A stretch of 49,079 nt of DNA from a virus. Lineage: Duplodnaviria > Caudoviricetes. The position numbers were made by a program, and so were the translations under genes. The notes below the pieces were generated by a model. It was given only the letters and a program-made list of their open reading frames with translations. It was not told the origin of the DNA and did no database searches. The stretch is from IMG/VR virus record IMGVR_UViG_3300038829_000052, positions 1-49,079 of that record, one strand, 5' to 3'. Below, one piece after another: positions 7,977 through 45,081 of the stretch. How positions within the stretch are numbered: position 1 is the stretch's first letter; each line of letters begins with the position of its first letter.

Positions 7977-8427
7977 CCCGAAGGTACTGACCGCCTATCG
8001 GATGAAAACCCATCCGACGATAGAACCTGTCAACCTTCTCGGGACGCAGGGCCGTATCTAGCCTGATCATTTGCCGCTTAAGACCAAGCGACTCGGCCCA
8101 CTCGACGAACGCGAGGATCAATCCCCGCGCCGTTTGGTAGCTCCGGTATTCGGGCGCTATATAAAACACGTCGTGCGCCGCAATCTTCATCGAGGTAAAG
8201 ATATACCCCGACACGAACCCATTGAGCCACCCGACAATATTAGAACCATTCTCGGCTACAATGCAACAGAATTTATCGGGGTGAGCAAAGACCGCCTCGG
8301 CGTTTGCCCGGAGCACCGCGCCATCTATAGGCGGATACCAAACGCGGCTTTCCAGCCGCATCCGTTCCCCGAGTTCGATCAGACGCGGTAAATCCTCAAT
8401 CCTTCCGTTTCTCAGCGAAGTACTCAA
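7912..8427 (-). CDS. GNAT-family acetyltransferase
   Basis: R.G..EDLPRL, IVG, FYIAPEYR, RFYRRMGF motifs. Confidence 0.85.
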   Translation of the reverse strand: MSTSLRNGRIEDLPRLIELGERMRLESRVWYPPIDGAVLRANAEAVFAHPDKFCCIVAENGSNIVGWLNGFVSGYIFTSMKIAAHDVFYIAPEYRSYQTARGLILAFVEWAESLGLKRQMIRLDTALRPEKVDRFYRRMGFHPIGGQYLRDGGDIDNRWSDGCPGGGGVGG

Positions 8428-24240: not shown

Positions 24241-24635
24241 GGCTTCACCAAGATATCCCGGATGCGCGCCAGCCCATCGGCGGAGCACAGGCTGTTGACC
24301 GCGCGCTTTCCAATCGAGCCGATCAAGATTCCGCGTTGCGCGTTCGTCAGGTACCCGGCGTGCTTGTTCAGCCCGTCCTTGATCGCACCGCGAACGCACA
24401 TCGCGACGTAATCCGCCAGTTCTTGCGGGCACCCTATTGGAATGGGATGGAGTCGGACCTTCCCTTCGCGAGCCCACTTAACCTGAGCGCGCGTTCCACT
24501 GCTGGCGGTGCCCGTGCGTCGCGGGTCGAGGTTGCCAGCATCAGCCGTGGTTTCAGACGCAGTTTGGCCGCCACGGCCATCATCAGCGGCGGTTACAGCA
24601 CCGCCAATCTCGTTTATATCATTCATCGCGCTCAT
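24237..24635 (-). CDS. Hypothetical protein
   Basis: ATGA-coupled at both ends. Confidence 0.5.
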   Translation of the reverse strand: MSAMNDINEIGGAVTAADDGRGGQTASETTADAGNLDPRRTGTASSGTRAQVKWAREGKVRLHPIPIGCPQELADYVAMCVRGAIKDGLNKHAGYLTNAQRGILIGSIGKRAVNSLCSADGLARIRDILVKP

Positions 24636-25036
24636 GGCTTCACCGCTTTCATGGGGAACACATTCGCCGGCACCATCCGCGCAAACACGGGCAAGTCCTC
24701 GACCGATTTAGCGCACTCAATCTCCGGCGTTATCGGCTTGCCAGCCGCCTTGTAGAACGCCAGCACCTCGGCAACGGTTTGCGCGGGCCTGACCACGGGC
24801 TCGGGCTTGATCGTTTCGTGTAACTCGCCGTCCATCCATCTGCCGGCCCTTAACCACGTTGCCGGGTGCGGAATGTACCGCGCCTCTTTGCCTTCCGAAA
24901 TGCACCATGCGGCGAATTTCTTGGCGCCGTCGATGATAGCGTTCGCATCGTATTTTGCCGTCATTTGTCGCCATGCTTTCTCAGCATCCAAACGACCAAC
25001 TTTCCTTGGGTATGCTCTGTAGAACTCATCGAACAT
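24632..25036 (-). CDS. Short phage replication protein (C-terminal domain of replisome-organiser/initiator type only)
   Basis: FDEFY.AYPRKVG...A.KAW...YIPHPATWL...RW.D. Confidence 0.75.
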   Translation of the reverse strand: MFDEFYRAYPRKVGRLDAEKAWRQMTAKYDANAIIDGAKKFAAWCISEGKEARYIPHPATWLRAGRWMDGELHETIKPEPVVRPAQTVAEVLAFYKAAGKPITPEIECAKSVEDLPVFARMVPANVFPMKAVKP

Positions 25037-25465
25037 TCCACCCTCTTAGATTATGTCCCTTCGGTTTGGCTCGGTTGTGCAGGCATAGATCGACTTACCG
25101 CGATTTCTCACGGCAGATCGCCATGCCTGCGCCTTGTCCCTTTCGGACGGCTTCGGCGCGTTTCGGCCTCTGGGATAGGTGACGATCCTCCCAAAGTCGG
25201 CCCCAACTGATCGAGCCCCATCGCACAGGGCTACCGCGATGCTGCGCCTCGGGCCTTGCGATCCGGCGCTGCGGGGCGGTCGCAGTCCTGGTTCCCCGCC
25301 GTAGCCGACAAGCGCCAGCGCAAGTCAAAGCGCCCACTTGCCGAGGCGGGTGGTTGCATGTATTTTCTTCGGGAGAGGTTCCGCCACCCCGCCAGGTGCG
25401 TAACCCGGCCCCGGTGAGTGAAAGCTCCCGGGGCCATTCGTTTGACGCTAGCCCAAGATTGGCTT
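25037..25465 (-). ncRNA. Candidate large structured non-coding RNA or structured replication origin
   Basis: No credible ORF. Many stems: GGCCCCGG/CCGGGGCC, nested CUUGCG-GGCGCU-GCGGGG/CCCCGC-AGCGCC-CGCAAG, GCAGGCAU/AUGCCUGC enclosing CCGUGA-GAAA-UCGCGG. GAAA loops read on the minus strand. Confidence 0.55.
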
Positions 25466-25945
25466 TCACGCAAGCCTTTCTCGTGCCGCCGCCAGCAGCG
25501 CCTTGAAATCCGCATCCTCCACAGCCCGCGCCACGCGGATTCCGTGCAGCACCGTCGAGTGATCGCGGCGGAAGTACCGGCCTATCTGCGGTGTGGATTT
25601 ACCCGTCAGTTCGTGCGCCAGCAGGAAGGCCGCTTGCCGGGGCCGGGCGATGTAGAGCTTGCGGTTTTGCGATCTCAACTCATCAAATGCCACGTTCCAC
25701 GCCCAGCAGACGGCTTGGGCGATGCGGTCCAATTCCAGCCGGGGCGGCTCTACCGGCCTCGCCATCGCGTGTTGCATCGCAACATGGGGGTTGATCTTGA
25801 CCCTGACGGAAACCGCGTAGGAAGGCCGTACAGGCGGTTTGGGTGCCCTCGGGCGGGCATAGAGCCTTGGGGGCACGAAAGGGCGATGTGGGGCCTCGTT
25901 GCGGGCCGTGGGGACGTGGTTTGCCCTAATAATTGCGACCATCAT
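25466..25945 (-). CDS. DnaA C-terminal (domain IV, Bac_DnaA_C) HTH protein
   Basis: L.S..R...IARPRQ.A..L..ELT..S.PQIGR.F.RDHSTV.HG. Confidence 0.88.
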   Translation of the reverse strand: MMVAIIRANHVPTARNEAPHRPFVPPRLYARPRAPKPPVRPSYAVSVRVKINPHVAMQHAMARPVEPPRLELDRIAQAVCWAWNVAFDELRSQNRKLYIARPRQAAFLLAHELTGKSTPQIGRYFRRDHSTVLHGIRVARAVEDADFKALLAAARERLA

Positions 25946-26163
25946 TTCACCCCCGGTATGCCGTGTGTTTTGATCTCGTAGATCGTCCCCGCCTTGTGCG
26001 GCTTCGGCACGAGTTCGATCTTCACCACGATCCCACGGTCGGCGTAGTATTTGCGGATGCGGGCCGCGCACTTCTTGGCCGATTCCAGATTTTCGTCGGC
26101 GCGGGGCTTGTAGTCGGGGAAGCGGGAGATTTTCAAATTTGACGCATTATCATCGTGTCTCAT
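25942..26163 (-). CDS. Hypothetical protein
   Basis: ATGA-coupled at both ends. Confidence 0.5.
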
Positions 26164-26836
26164 ACCAGAGAGCCCTGTTTCATCTTCGGTTCGGGGAGCG
26201 GCAGCCGTGGCTCGCGTGTTGCGGCTTCGATCCGGCGGCACGCAATGTCGAAATACTTGGGCTCGATCTCGATGCCGATGAACTTCCGCCCGAGCTTCAC
26301 GCAGGCTACGCCCGTGGTGCCGCTGCCCATGAAGGGATCGAGGATCGTTTCGGTATCGCCGATTTGTTCAATCGACCACACCATCAACTCGACGGGCTTC
26401 TGTGACGGGTGTGCGGCGGTTTGTAGAGACTTTTCGAGCGATGCGGATTTGACTGACTTCTCAAACCGGCGCGCGTTCATATCGAGCGACGTCCACGCAA
26501 GCTCAAGATCGGCCATCGAGGGCGCGTTGCCGGTTTTCGTCCATGCGAGCCAGCCGCGAGATTGAGGAAGCGCGAAGTGGTTGCCGCCCAAATTACAACC
26601 TTGTCGGAAACCTTCAGAAATGCAGTTAAATCAGGCTTTTCATTGTCCCAAGTTTCGCGTACCATGCCGTTTGCGCGTTGGTAGCGCGTCGGCTGCGCCG
26701 CGAATCCAATCCCATACGGCGGGTCGGTAATCACGGCATCCACCCCGCCCAACGTCGGCAGCACCTCCCGGCAATCCCCGAGATACAGCGTGCAGTCGCC
26801 GATGTGCTCGACCCTCAAATCGGCCTCCACAGACAA
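26160..26836 (-). pseudogene. N6-adenine/N4-cytosine DNA methyltransferase split by a 1-nt frameshift near 26588
   Basis: 5' frame has LYLGDC...TDPPYG...VVIW. 3' frame has GGNHF...HPSQKP...[11 protein letters not shown]...FIGIE. One G is missing from the expected TGG-GGC-GGC-AAC. Confidence 0.85.
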
Positions 26837-27527: not shown

Positions 27528-28336
27528 TATGCCACCACCCGCATGTAACCCTTCATATTGAGCGGGCGCGGCAATCGCTGGAGGCTTTCACCAACGCTCC
27601 ATTTCTCGAATGCGGTTATGGCGCGACGACACACCTTTTCGTTTTGGCCGCCGCCGTAGCGTCCCCGCGCCCAAACGATTACCTCGTGAGCGGCCTGAAT
27701 CCCGTCCATTTGGCCGTTGGCCTTAGTTCCCCTGTCTGCGAGAACCGCTCGCCAAAACCGCTCGGCTTTTGTGCCGTGCTTGTGGTGGGTGAGAAGAATC
27801 GCGCCGACTATCCCGGTGGGCAACATTCCCCGGCGAAGATTCAGGGTATCTAGGAACGCGATCGAGGCGCTTATAGTCCTCATAACCTCGTATTCCCGCC
27901 CCTTCATCCCTATATTTCGGGAGACAATGTTAATGGCGTTCGCGATGAGGCCGTTTCGCACGATGTCGGAAACTGCGCCGATCCCGCTCTCACGAAGGCC
28001 GCCGTACACTCGATCAGCGGCTTTCTCGACCGCCGCCTGGCTGTCGTAATGGGTATAAAGTTCCTTCGCTTCTTCTATGGAGTGAACGTCATAGACGACG
28101 ACGTTCAGTTTTTCGGGCTTATCCACATCTCCGCGCTGCCACATCAACGAGCGCGTATGCCCGTCAAGTTTGGTAAGTTCGCCATTGGGCAGTCTGGCGG
28201 CGGCGACAACGGCGTGATCCTTGGAGGGCTTCAAAAGATGTTTGGACTTTTCGGCCCGCCCCTCCGTGTCGCGCTGGCGAGGGTTGTCTTGAATTTGCGC
28301 CCATTCGTCGGTAGTCATTCTGAGCATTGTCGTCAC
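27527..28336 (-). CDS. Hypothetical protein with a ParB/Srx-like N-terminal motif
   Basis: NPRQR...LDGHTR resembles the ParB-like (D)G(H/Q)(H/T)R motif. Confidence 0.5.
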   Translation of the reverse strand: MTTMLRMTTDEWAQIQDNPRQRDTEGRAEKSKHLLKPSKDHAVVAAARLPNGELTKLDGHTRSLMWQRGDVDKPEKLNVVVYDVHSIEEAKELYTHYDSQAAVEKAADRVYGGLRESGIGAVSDIVRNGLIANAINIVSRNIGMKGREYEVMRTISASIAFLDTLNLRRGMLPTGIVGAILLTHHKHGTKAERFWRAVLADRGTKANGQMDGIQAAHEVIVWARGRYGGGQNEKVCRRAITAFEKWSVGESLQRLPRPLNMKGYMRVVA

Positions 28337-29572: not shown

Positions 29573-30484
29573 ATGCCCACCCCGATCAAAACCCAAGCCG
29601 AACTCGACGCCGCAATCGCAGCGCGTCCGAACGATTGGCATATCGTCGCCGAGGGCCGGTTTTCGATCAGCATTGGGCGCGTCGAGGCGTGGGGAAACGC
29701 GTCCGTCGAGGCGCGGGAAAACGCGTCCGTCGAGGCGCGGGGAAACGCGTCCGTCGTGGCGTGGGGAAACGCGTCCGTCGAGGCGCGGGGAAACGCGTCC
29801 GTCGTGGCGTGGGGAAACGCGTCCGTCGTGGCGTGGGGAAACGCGTCCGTCGAGGCGCGGGAAAACGCGTCCGTCGAGGCGCGGGAAAACGCGTCCGTCG
29901 AGGCGTGGGGAAACGCGTCCGTCGAGGCGTGGGGAAACGCGTCCGTCGAGGCGCGGGAAAACGCGTCCGTCGAGGCGTGGGGAAATGTCTTCGTTCGCCT
30001 TTTCAGCGCCCTGAAAATCACTGTGTCGTTCGGCGTCATAATCGCCAAACACGGTGAAGCGAAGACGCTGACGGGCGGTCAAATCGTCGAGTGCAAGCCG
30101 CCGCTGACCGCAAAGGAATGGTGCGAGCATCACGGCATCGCCGTCAAAGACGGTGTTGCGCTAGTGTTCAAAGGTGTGAATGCCGAGTTCCATTCCGAAC
30201 AGGGCGGCGTCTACACCCCAGGCTCAACTCCGGTCGCGCCGGATTGGGACGGCGGCAAAGCCGAGTGTGGCGGCGGCCTTCACTTTTCGCCGCTACCGCA
30301 GATGACGCACGAATTTTGCACGCCCATCAAATTCGTTGCGTGCCCCGTGGCTCTCGCGGATATGCGGGCGCCGCAAGAGGGCGACGATTACCCGAACAAG
30401 ATCAAGGCGCGCGGCGCGCACGCGCCGGTCTACGAAGTTGACAAGAAGGGCGATCGTGTCGCGCCCACGGAGAAAGCCGCATGA
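29573..30484 (+). CDS. Octapeptide-repeat (beta-solenoid-like) protein with a C-terminal CGGGLHF domain
   Basis: 13 x V[EV]A[WR][GE]NAS, then FK.V...F.S..G..Y.PG...CGGGLHF...K.KA. Confidence 0.8.
   Translation: MPTPIKTQAELDAAIAARPNDWHIVAEGRFSISIGRVEAWGNASVEARENASVEARGNASVVAWGNASVEARGNASVVAWGNASVVAWGNASVEARENASVEARENASVEAWGNASVEAWGNASVEARENASVEAWGNVFVRLFSALKITVSFGVIIAKHGEAKTLTGGQIVECKPPLTAKEWCEHHGIAVKDGVALVFKGVNAEFHSEQGGVYTPGSTPVAPDWDGGKAECGGGLHFSPLPQMTHEFCTPIKFVACPVALADMRAPQEGDDYPNKIKARGAHAPVYEVDKKGDRVAPTEKAA
29681..29992 (+). repeat. 24-bp tandem repeat, 12 full copies plus 1 partial
   Basis: gtcg[a/t]ggcg[t/c]ggg[g/a]aaacgcgtcc. Confidence 0.95.
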
Positions 30485-43771: not shown

Positions 43772-45081
43772 TGCACGACTCGATAACGCGTGCCGCCCGG
43801 CGTCTTGTTCCAAGTGTCTTTGGTGGGGGCGCCCGGTTTGTCGATGGCGGATTCGATTTCAGAGATTGACGGCGTAATCGGCCCACGATAACCAGCCAAC
43901 GTGCCGTGCTTTTCAAAGTACGCAGCGGCCTTCGTCTTGGCATCAACAGCTCGTTCCATGGCCAAAACCAATCGGCCCAAGCGCTCTGCATTGTATTTCG
44001 GATCAAGTGCCGGGTTGTAGGCTCGTTCAATCAGGCGGAAACCTTCCTTTTGGGTGAATTGAGCGCCGAGGATCAGTCGCAGATTCCGCTGGACAACTTC
44101 CTCCACCAATTCCAACGCCTGAGTTTCTTTGGGGTAGGTGAGGCGCTGAACGCCTCGGGGGAGAGAGCCGAAAATCGGGCCAGTTAGACTCTCGCCCGCC
44201 TTCAGTCTGTCGGAAACGCTTTTGAGTTGCGCCAAGTTCTTTTGAATATCGGCGATGCCGCCAGAACCCATGAGTTCGGCGTATTCCTTGCCGAATTTCT
44301 TATCGACCTCGACTTGAGCCGGCGTGAGAACGGGTTTGCCCTTCCATATCCGATAGGGCGGCTCGCCTTCTTTTGCCGGCTCGGCGCCGACTTGCGGAGG
44401 CGTTTCCGGCCCGAGTTCGAACGGCACGGTCGGCACGGCGCCGGGTGTTCTGCCGACAAATTGAGGCCCGCGCTTCGATTGATCCAAAATGGCCGCAACT
44501 TCATTCGCGGCGCGGTCTCCTGGGGCGGAGCCGGGCGCATATTCAATTTCAGCGTGAGGCGTGCGCGTTCTAATTTGCGGCCCAGAAGTGGCAGTCGGGA
44601 TAACAGGTTCCACTTTCCCGGATTTGCTGACGCGGGCATAGATTGGCGTTCCCTCGCGAGTCTCGCCAACCTTTTCGACCGTCCAGCTTTCCTTTTCTGA
44701 TTGAGTCCGAGTAAGTTCAAGGCGGGCACGGTCGATTTCGTTCGTCGCAAGAAACCGACGCTCTTGTGCCTTCATTTCTTCAAGCTGCTTATCTAGCCCC
44801 ATGACATTCAGAAACATATTCATGGCCCCGCCCGTCGCCTGTTGGCGCGCGGCATCTAGGGGGGCGAGGCTCTTGGCGAACGGCGTGCCCCCACCGGAAG
44901 CATCCAGGGCCGCCAGCCCCACATCGCCCAGCCGCGAGATCGGATCGTTGCGGACCGTCGCATCCCGGATCATGCTTTCCATGAGCGGGGCGAACATGGA
45001 TTTCAGGCTATCGGGCGTGCTTCCAATCGCCGTGTTCTGAGGCGAAGAAACTTGGCCGATCATATCGAGAAGGGATGCCAT
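43768..45081 (-). CDS. DNA ejection/internal virion protein
   Basis: Helical. VDK.F.K.Y, LR.ILGAQFT.KEG segment. Position in the operon. Confidence 0.7.
   Translation of the reverse strand: MASLLDMIGQVSSPQNTAIGSTPDSLKSMFAPLMESMIRDATVRNDPISRLGDVGLAALDASGGGTPFAKSLAPLDAARQQATGGAMNMFLNVMGLDKQLEEMKAQERRFLATNEIDRARLELTRTQSEKESWTVEKVGETREGTPIYARVSKSGKVEPVIPTATSGPQIRTRTPHAEIEYAPGSAPGDRAANEVAAILDQSKRGPQFVGRTPGAVPTVPFELGPETPPQVGAEPAKEGEPPYRIWKGKPVLTPAQVEVDKKFGKEYAELMGSGGIADIQKNLAQLKSVSDRLKAGESLTGPIFGSLPRGVQRLTYPKETQALELVEEVVQRNLRLILGAQFTQKEGFRLIERAYNPALDPKYNAERLGRLVLAMERAVDAKTKAAAYFEKHGTLAGYRGPITPSISEIESAIDKPGAPTKDTWNKTPGGTRYRVVQ

Follow-up and report, generated by a model that had tools for sequence, protein, structure and literature searches.

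Gene layout of the locus

The window—the whole stretch of 49,079 bases analyzed here, IMG/VR record IMGVR_UViG_3300038829_000052 of a Caudoviricetes phage—is rated 100% complete and carries terminase, portal, capsid, tail, and lysis genes. Its leftward early arm features a RusA-like resolvase, two DNA methylases, a DnaA domain IV protein, a gap of 429 nucleotides (nt), and an open reading frame (ORF) of 134 amino acids (aa). The host presumably belongs to the Alphaproteobacteria. The subject of this study is the element in the gap (25037–25465) between the DnaA_C gene and the 134-aa ORF: a conserved, covarying minus-strand structure with a noncoding core of 298 nt at 25053–25350, predicted to be RNA. 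The element is real and new, and it is uncatalogued in Rfam.

The stand-alone DnaA domain IV protein (Bac_DnaA_C; 25466–25942, minus strand) is recognized by PF08299 at an E-value of 4.4e-21, as the first-pass annotation—made from the sequence alone—had proposed, and its gene closes with its own stop codon. The connection to the element that was drawn there is weakened: the single DnaA-box match of the window lies at 28119, none lies inside the element, and the protein has no evident link to it.

The structured element

Twenty runs from 11 studies contain part of the region, and seven of these were compared in detail, with variant letters assigned presumptively to contigs by matching depth figures. 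In six runs (X6, X9, X12, X13, X17, and X18), the pieces are confined to 25053–25350, and the contigs continue as unlike sequence beyond 25053 (X6 and X18) and beyond 25350 (X6 and X9). These limits rest on loose contig ends, and the lack of flank cover in X6, X12, and X13 is partly a matter of run selection. Run X3 holds a 25-kb contig that is 92% alike over 25262–25959, with 24980–25261 swapped for 288 other letters. The first-pass annotation had taken some 430 nt as structured; the element is indeed conserved, but the core is shorter than that, and the GGCCCCGG/CCGGGGCC hairpin (25407–25435, minus strand) lies outside it. In X3 this hairpin shows a loop insertion and, among the matches listed, no stem change, and X6 and X9 diverge at 25350.

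The minus strand of the gap folds with a z-score of −2.90 in a shuffle test (0 of 100 shuffles as good) and the plus strand with +0.11. For the core, the values are −3.07 and +0.24 with RNA parameters and −1.2 and −0.3 with DNA energy parameters. Folding alone is modest evidence because two of 110 background tiles of 300 nt (8101–8400 and 44101–44400, both on the minus strand; 12 shuffles each) score as low, at z ≤ −3. It is the covariation, not the folding score, that carries the case for structure. Record 6 of run X6 features 16 changes in 130 nt, ten of which form five double compensatory pairs. All five pairs fall in stems named before the variants were known, no break occurs in those stems, and none of 200,000 random placements gives five double changes. 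The stems listed in the first-pass annotation are all present in the sequence, and its preference for a minus-strand RNA agrees with folding above shuffles on that strand alone and with one-sided changes that go via minus-strand G·U pairs.

Read from its 5′ end on the minus strand, the core opens with a region of alternative pairings (25305–25348). The minimum-free-energy hairpin 25344–25330/25305–25321 has two one-sided changes in its favor and one against it. The CCACCCGCC hairpin proposed for this region fared unevenly: its outer CCAC/GUGG pairs are broken twice in X3, where CGCCU/GGGCG is kept instead by two changes. The central domain (25231–25299) is predicted to pair GCGGGG/CCCCGC and GCGCC/GGCGC with a GCAA loop, and the compared runs show no variant letter there among the matches listed. 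As the nested CUUGCG/GGCGCU/GCGGGG domain of the earlier proposal it is present and mostly invariant, but it shows no covariation and competes with the minimum-free-energy hairpin. At 25214–25241, CAUCGC/GCGAUG is interleaved with AGCCC/GGGCU as a pseudoknot or switch. The former stem is invariant; the latter carries two double changes in X6 (C25230–G25216 to A–U and C25229–G25217 to G–C), which are also present in X17 and X18, as a single haplotype rather than as independent events. GGGCU can pair with AGCCC or with a 3′ CGAGCC, and because a linker is lacking on the 3′ side, the interleaved stems may alternate as a switch. The hairpin UUUGGGA/UCCCAGA (25169–25195) holds three double and two one-sided pair-keeping changes in record 6 of X6, so that both this stem and AGCCC/GGGCU, predicted beforehand, are supported by double compensatory changes.

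The 3′ half, also on the minus strand, continues with a GAAA-tetraloop hairpin (25135–25148) that includes the first copy of a direct repeat (AAGGGACA, 25135–25142). Its loop is unchanged, and G25148·A25137 becomes A–U in relatives. The long terminal hairpin GCAGGCAU...AUGCCUGC (25079–25130) carries three one-sided changes at G·U pairs—U25110·G25101 to C–G and to U–A, and G25122·U to A–U—while its loop and closing pair vary. Of the GAAA loops to which the first-pass annotation had drawn attention, CC-GAAA-GG is therefore retained, but the loop at 25104–25107 is U-rich in all three contigs of relatives that cover the site. The purine-rich 3′ end (25053–25075), with the second repeat copy at 25054–25061, is conserved to 25053 and is a candidate for the end of an RNA–DNA hybrid; a similar layout is seen, by eye only, at two other loci (L003 and L082).

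Two further motifs were noted. A minimum-free-energy pairing CAGG/CCUG was discarded, as it is broken twice. CCGA(A/G) recurs on the minus strand at an exact 10-nt spacing, in three copies at 25146–25166 and two at 25064–25074; these could be phased protein-binding sites on DNA.

Changes go via G·U pairs, a GNRA loop is kept, and stems that interleave are found more typically in RNA than in single-stranded DNA (ssDNA); the minus-strand z-score of the core is also far lower with RNA than with DNA parameters. These observations speak against a folded ssDNA origin or primosome assembly site, similar to the phiX174 pas, which transcription would expose for binding by PriA or the stand-alone domain. 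Such a site is rather unlikely. Just one of the two strands folds, however, an ssDNA site would explain the exclusion of full-length initiators described below equally well, and covariation does not separate RNA from ssDNA, as stated in PMC5737381.

As for coding, a 124-codon GTG frame at 25095–25469 has no family match and is shifted in four of the five indel-bearing contigs of relatives, in agreement with the first-pass statement that the gap lacks a credible ORF. The frame across the region would suit the decayed 5′ coding half of an initiator, and GCGGGGAA...CCCCGCAGC, which resembles the P4/P6 junction of group I introns, would suit a group I intron-like ribozyme. Either origin of the region is most improbable. 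Decay is refuted by the frameshifts and by the best tblastn match to 202 N-terminal initiator halves, whose E-value of 0.003 is at chance level for so many queries. The group I topology was rejected as well: Rfam returns no intron family at E ≤ 10, the P3-like pairing has no supporting change (its partners being mostly uncovered), neither a canonical P7 nor an interrupted gene is seen, and the upstream gene closes with a stop codon of its own.

An iteron array is absent, in line with the first-pass annotation, the longest exact direct repeats being 9 and 8 nt in two copies each. In Rfam, the check recommended by the first-pass annotation, no family matches at gathering level, and the best score at E ≤ 10 is 20 bits. 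Pattern scans of IMG/VR returned 0, 30, and 113 matches, none blastn-similar to the element. There is no match in 50,697 phage records, 72,556 plasmids gave three short chance matches, and genomes of the class of G002 gave only chance matches of 20–70 nt (41 of 401). Among 312 loci with the YPRK domain introduced below, the element is matched in L081 alone, a record of the same phage. The three outcomes that the annotation had set against itself—no covarying structure, folding no better than shuffled sequence, and a decayed coding half—are absent.

The 134-aa protein and the missing initiator half

The 134-aa protein (24632–25036, minus strand) is, as judged by profile and fold matches, an intact stand-alone initiator C-terminal domain of the YPRK type with a family-specific tail. 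In the phage initiator profiles phrog_270, phrog_9474, and phrog_9327, residues 2–71 match nothing but the C-terminal part (positions 179–250 of 383 in phrog_270), an in-frame stop lies three codons 5′ of the ATG, as checked in the identical record L081, and a purine tract resembling a ribosome-binding site precedes the ATG at 25037–25046 (minus strand). The first-pass view that the domain stands without its N-terminal half is thereby confirmed; no lambdoid O-type N-terminal DNA-binding domain is fused to it. The structure model has a pLDDT of 85, and its BFVD fold matches are C-termini of phage initiators, along with a match to DnaD at an E-value of 4.7e-3. The PDB yields no match by Foldseek or by sequence.

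Homologues number 23 of 30 candidates, with 128–151 aa, in a search to which fused forms are invisible; 20 of them are 47–70% identical across more than 90% of the protein. When longer proteins were searched, 8 of 161 candidates proved homologous, with identities no higher than 51%; seven of the eight carry DUF1376 or HTH_36. At the 312 loci with a YPRK domain, the domain is stand-alone in 92, fused in 202, intermediate in 4, and at a contig edge in 14. With 92 stand-alone loci and 23 homologues of similar size, the stand-alone state is common and conserved.

No origin-binding Rep protein was found in the window, where the C-terminal domain is the sole piece of an initiator. Neither DUF1376, HTH_36, DnaB_C, nor Pol A matches in six frames, and tblastn of 210 N-terminal initiator halves gave no match. 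Helicase, primase, polymerase, and integrase families are absent among 94 ORFs scanned against PHROGs and 93 scanned against Pfam, many of which are family-less; for the first three families this accords with the first-pass annotation.

Two other features of the window deserve mention. An N6/N4 methylase at 26160–26836 (minus strand) is split over the overlapping frames 26477–26836 and 26160–26591. Record L081 has 26 extra bases in this region, so the split probably reflects an assembly difference. The rightward arm opens at 29573–30484 (plus strand) with a 303-aa protein of about 13 tandem 8-residue repeats (phrog_15773), near the GC-skew minimum at 29628.

Cassettes in another phage group

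Of 40 loci scanned with Rfam, almost all of them stand-alone, five have the orphan family Betaproteobacteria-1 upstream of the YPRK domain. A profile extended from these five finds 9 of the 92 stand-alone loci, five of the nine being the seeds, and none of the 202 fused ones. One cro-like gene is shared by 42 of the 92 stand-alone loci, and behind it all 42 carry a cassette of about 200–250 nt: type A in 28 (seven by eye), Betaproteobacteria-1 in seven, type B in five, and type C in two (by eye). Covariation is seen in 13 of 47 pairs of type A (0 of 500 shuffles; the structure was predicted from the same alignment), in 4 of 46 pairs of type B (five sequences), and in 5 of 27 pairs of a 3′ extension of Betaproteobacteria-1.

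For a test of exclusion, loci were chosen by the cro-like gene only, as the best 80 of 436 confirmed in 37 of 64 parts of IMG/VR; one is a seed contig. Eleven loci with less than 1,400 nt downstream were dropped, none of them with both features. The 69 loci counted comprise 44 with a cassette (roughly 200–300 nt) and no full initiator, 24 with a full initiator and no cassette, none with both, and one with neither. Three of the cassettes are of a type D defined post hoc; without it, four loci have neither. The nonredundant counts are 36, 14, 0, and 1 (Fisher 1.2e-11, uncorrected for kinship). The full-length initiators at the 24 loci are of the DUF1376 or phrog_26426 type, and 29 of the 44 cassette loci have a stand-alone YPRK gene, the other 15 having none in the stretch. 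A tree of 50 cro genes, which excludes the locus with neither feature, features seven switches of state, at least five of them forced by supported branches, and opposite states are seen at 91–93% cro identity. At the level of whole records, none of 12 cassette phages (eight of them at least 90% complete) carries DUF1376; three of four initiator controls do, the fourth having another N-terminal initiator type.

Two of the cassette genomes, G559 (L574 and L575) and G562 (L576 and L577), are complete phages of 33–35 kb with terminal repeats and without a YPRK domain. A PHROGs scan of 85 of their 93 ORFs of at least 75 aa revealed no initiator, loader, helicase, primase, or polymerase.

In this group, the distance between cassette and YPRK gene can reach about 2 kb, with other genes between, and the cassette is hence not simply the leader of that gene. 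This bears on the view that the element acts in cis as an mRNA leader whose pseudoknot switch governs translation of the 134-aa protein, in the manner of rep control in ColIb-P9. Only 16 nt separate the core from the ATG, GGGCU has its two alternative partners, the 3′ 210 nt diverge in X3 along with the gene start, and section 6 of PMC6380287 offers a precedent. Against this, the ribosome-binding site lies outside the conserved core, the spacer varies among relatives, no antisense RNA was identified, and the cassettes of the other group can be distant or have no YPRK gene to lead. A leader is accordingly unlikely.

Several observations on the cassettes stand apart from the exclusion. The uncatalogued types A, B, C, and D occupy one slot (L011:1299–1536, L058:1195–1394, L105 and L077 after the cro-like gene, and L553). 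Loci L011, L052, L058, L065, L069, L076, L077, and L105 have no relevant Rfam match, and types C and D share stretches that are 70–75% identical. Betaproteobacteria-1 runs about 75 nt past its model as a conserved 3′ extension (L051:2424–2540 and L132:1348–1463), which in L132 ends right before the stand-alone YPRK gene. It also adjoins TniQ in Tn7-like elements of bacterial genomes (L486, L490, and L491), where the extension is longer. A conserved 130-nt hairpin element lies between the cro-like gene and the cassette in L047, L052, L065, and L066, with no Rfam match in L052 and L065; it is reminiscent of c4 antisense RNA. At the sole locus with neither feature (L571), a noncoding stretch holds a G7-TA-G7 tract about 260–290 nt past the cro-like gene, and an HNH gene comes next. 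Structured tracts lie directly upstream of the stand-alone YPRK genes in L003 (2670–2985, z −3.05), L082 (1–222, z −2.63), L002, L004, and L152, and those of L003 and L082 resemble the 3′ half of the window element by eye. Homology to Betaproteobacteria-1, as it seemed by eye, was rejected by model R1, built on the 3′ extension, both for the window element and for 25 further loci, L003 and L082 among them. A scan for repeat–hairpin–repeat arrangements was nonspecific, with 56 of 85 fused controls positive.

A proposed role as replication origin

By analogy with plasmid systems, the element is likely—with a chance near even—a cis-acting phage origin that works via a ColE1-like R-loop and replaces the origin-binding half of the initiator, using host enzymes and leaving the protein an accessory role. 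The observed starting point is a fold that covaries and contains interleaved stems, as a pseudoknot or switch, in a genome where the searches returned neither a full initiator nor a helicase, primase, or polymerase. The element would be transcribed inside the leftward early operon and would fold during synthesis. As in ColE1 RNA II, the fold would keep the purine-rich 3′ end stably hybridized to the template, and this hybrid could prime host Pol I after an RNase H cut, expose the other strand, or both. Host restart proteins of the PriA pathway would then load the host helicase, and the 134-aa domain may serve as an ssDNA-binding or loader adaptor rather than as the specificity factor. The literature offers precedents: the ColE1 transcript persists as a hybrid and, once RNase H has cut it, provides the primer for Pol I, or else it displaces a strand onto which a helicase can be loaded (PMC4412123); PriA binds R-loops, and ColE1-like plasmids as well as phiX174 are replicated by restart proteins (PMC5778457); and MRB plasmids use ColE1-like priming with unrelated RNAs (PMC6380287).

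That a full initiator and a cassette never occur together—in none of 69 loci, across at least five switches—suggests that the RNA likely serves as the origin. The first-pass idea of an RNA in place of the DNA-binding half gains from this exclusion, but only through another phage group. No homology was detected between the cassettes of that group and the element; the argument therefore runs via position and gene content. The same annotation had also considered an RNP (ribonucleoprotein) scaffold. Since two complete cassette phages lack the YPRK domain, the stand-alone domain looks dispensable, which weakens an obligatory RNP and favors the R-loop origin. Possible, if doubtful, is a wider version in which several unrelated structured RNA families have, on repeated occasions, taken the place of the origin-binding half in phage initiators; here the RNA would be the targeting half of a split RNA–protein initiator and would hold the R-loop while the C-terminal domain binds the RNA and loads the host helicase.

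A number of results weigh against an R-loop origin. Model R1 scores the element at 5.8 bits (E 6.2). No sigma-70-like promoter was found on the minus strand and no promoter match on the plus strand near the element, an antisense equivalent of RNA I was not identified, and cover by RNA libraries amounts to one 151-nt contig at a depth of 2.8 in one library, which does not show transcription. The longest G runs of the element are 4 nt, in contrast to the rG stretch of ColE1; the 8-nt purine-rich direct repeat could stand in for it, although repeats of this sort are widespread, being present in 56 of 85 controls. The cumulative GC skew turns at 29628, away from the element; as an origin locator, GC skew was uninformative. 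For the 134-aa protein, VIA matches to SPP1 G39P (1no1; Z 4.7, rmsd 2.4, 56 aligned) and DnaD (2zc2; Z 3.8, rmsd 3.5, 58 aligned) do not rise above background. Initiator-type phages likewise lack DnaB and Pol A, so their absence is not specific. A crude comparison of minimum-z folding upstream of stand-alone and fused domains gave no excess (21 versus 41 of 85, p 0.46); the ORF-free gap, by a crude measure too, does differ, with a median of 203 nt at 21 stand-alone loci and 92 nt at 85 fused loci (p 0.016).

Further such results concern the cassettes and lend themselves to another explanation: an independent noncoding RNA or transcription-control element (an antiterminator, an anti-defense RNA, or a GOLLD/ROOL-like RNA) in an early-operon slot, with the cassette phages replicating by recombination or by an unrecognized small protein. 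G559 and G562 encode Erf, SSB, and an exonuclease, which allows for recombination-dependent replication, and ORFs below 75 aa lay outside the scan of these genomes. Betaproteobacteria-1 occurs in 8 of 151 bacterial genomes, and all eight stretches (6–10.5 kb) are without a YPRK domain on the same strand; its neighbors are TniB/TniQ in three (two near-identical), a phage repressor and RdgC in one, and island-like DNA in the rest. In addition, a single slot is common to at least four unrelated cassettes. Such an independent element is nevertheless somewhat unlikely, as it leaves the absence of co-occurrence at 69 loci across at least five switches unexplained.

Many small tailed phages have no recognizable replication gene, and the start of their replication is unexplained. 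If the R-loop origin is true, RNA-primed initiation of the ColE1 kind reaches tailed phages as an exchangeable substitute for a protein initiator, Betaproteobacteria-1 and at least four uncatalogued cassette types acquire a testable function, and new compact origins could become available. The literature search, with most subscription papers outside it, found no paper that describes structured RNAs in place of phage initiators. It found no function for Betaproteobacteria-1 either, within a scope that did not extend to the supplement of PMC5737381, which may cover its context, or to those of PMC10690425, whose candidate phage RNAs measure 151 nt or less and could include a fragment of the element.

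Comparison with known systems

Lambdoid O-type or replisome-organizer initiators (DUF1376 and HTH_36; phrog_270, phrog_9474, and phrog_9327) share their C-terminal domain with the first 70 residues of the 134-aa protein, but their N-terminal DNA-binding domain and iteron linker were not found anywhere in the genome.

Betaproteobacteria-1 (RF02932) sits in the same kind of slot upstream of a stand-alone YPRK gene, is exclusive with full initiators, and has a similar 3′ layout by eye. The element, in contrast, scores below the gathering threshold of this family, does not match its 3′ extension, is longer, and has another 5′ domain.

The R-loop origins of phage T4 feature a promoter and an unwinding element and are served by the replisome of the phage itself. 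Like the origin proposed here, oriF and oriG start from a persistent RNA–DNA hybrid, according to the account of them in PMC4412123; unlike them, the window features a conserved covarying fold and no replisome genes were found in it.

The plasmid motifs ARRPOF, GEBRO, and PAGEV are structured, span 223–349 nt, and are tied to replication regions, similar to the setting proposed for the element, and ARRPOF is located in a region that replicates without its rep gene (PMC5737381). They differ in being plasmid-borne and from other taxa, and Rfam gives no match between them and the element.

A functional parallel would be provided by ColE1 RNA II and the MRB primer RNAs, which are long structured transcripts—as predicted for the element—in systems without an origin-binding Rep protein and which depend on the RNase H, Pol I, and restart proteins of the host, as would the element by analogy (PMC4412123 and PMC6380287). 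The element differs from both in residing in a tailed-phage genome that keeps a truncated initiator domain downstream. With respect to RNA I, no plus-strand promoter match lies near the element and the plus strand folds at chance; homology to RNA I or RNA II is likewise not seen in the sequence, given the lack of an Rfam match and three short chance matches among plasmids. If the model holds, the element works like a ColE1-type RNA origin, yet without being a member of that family by sequence.

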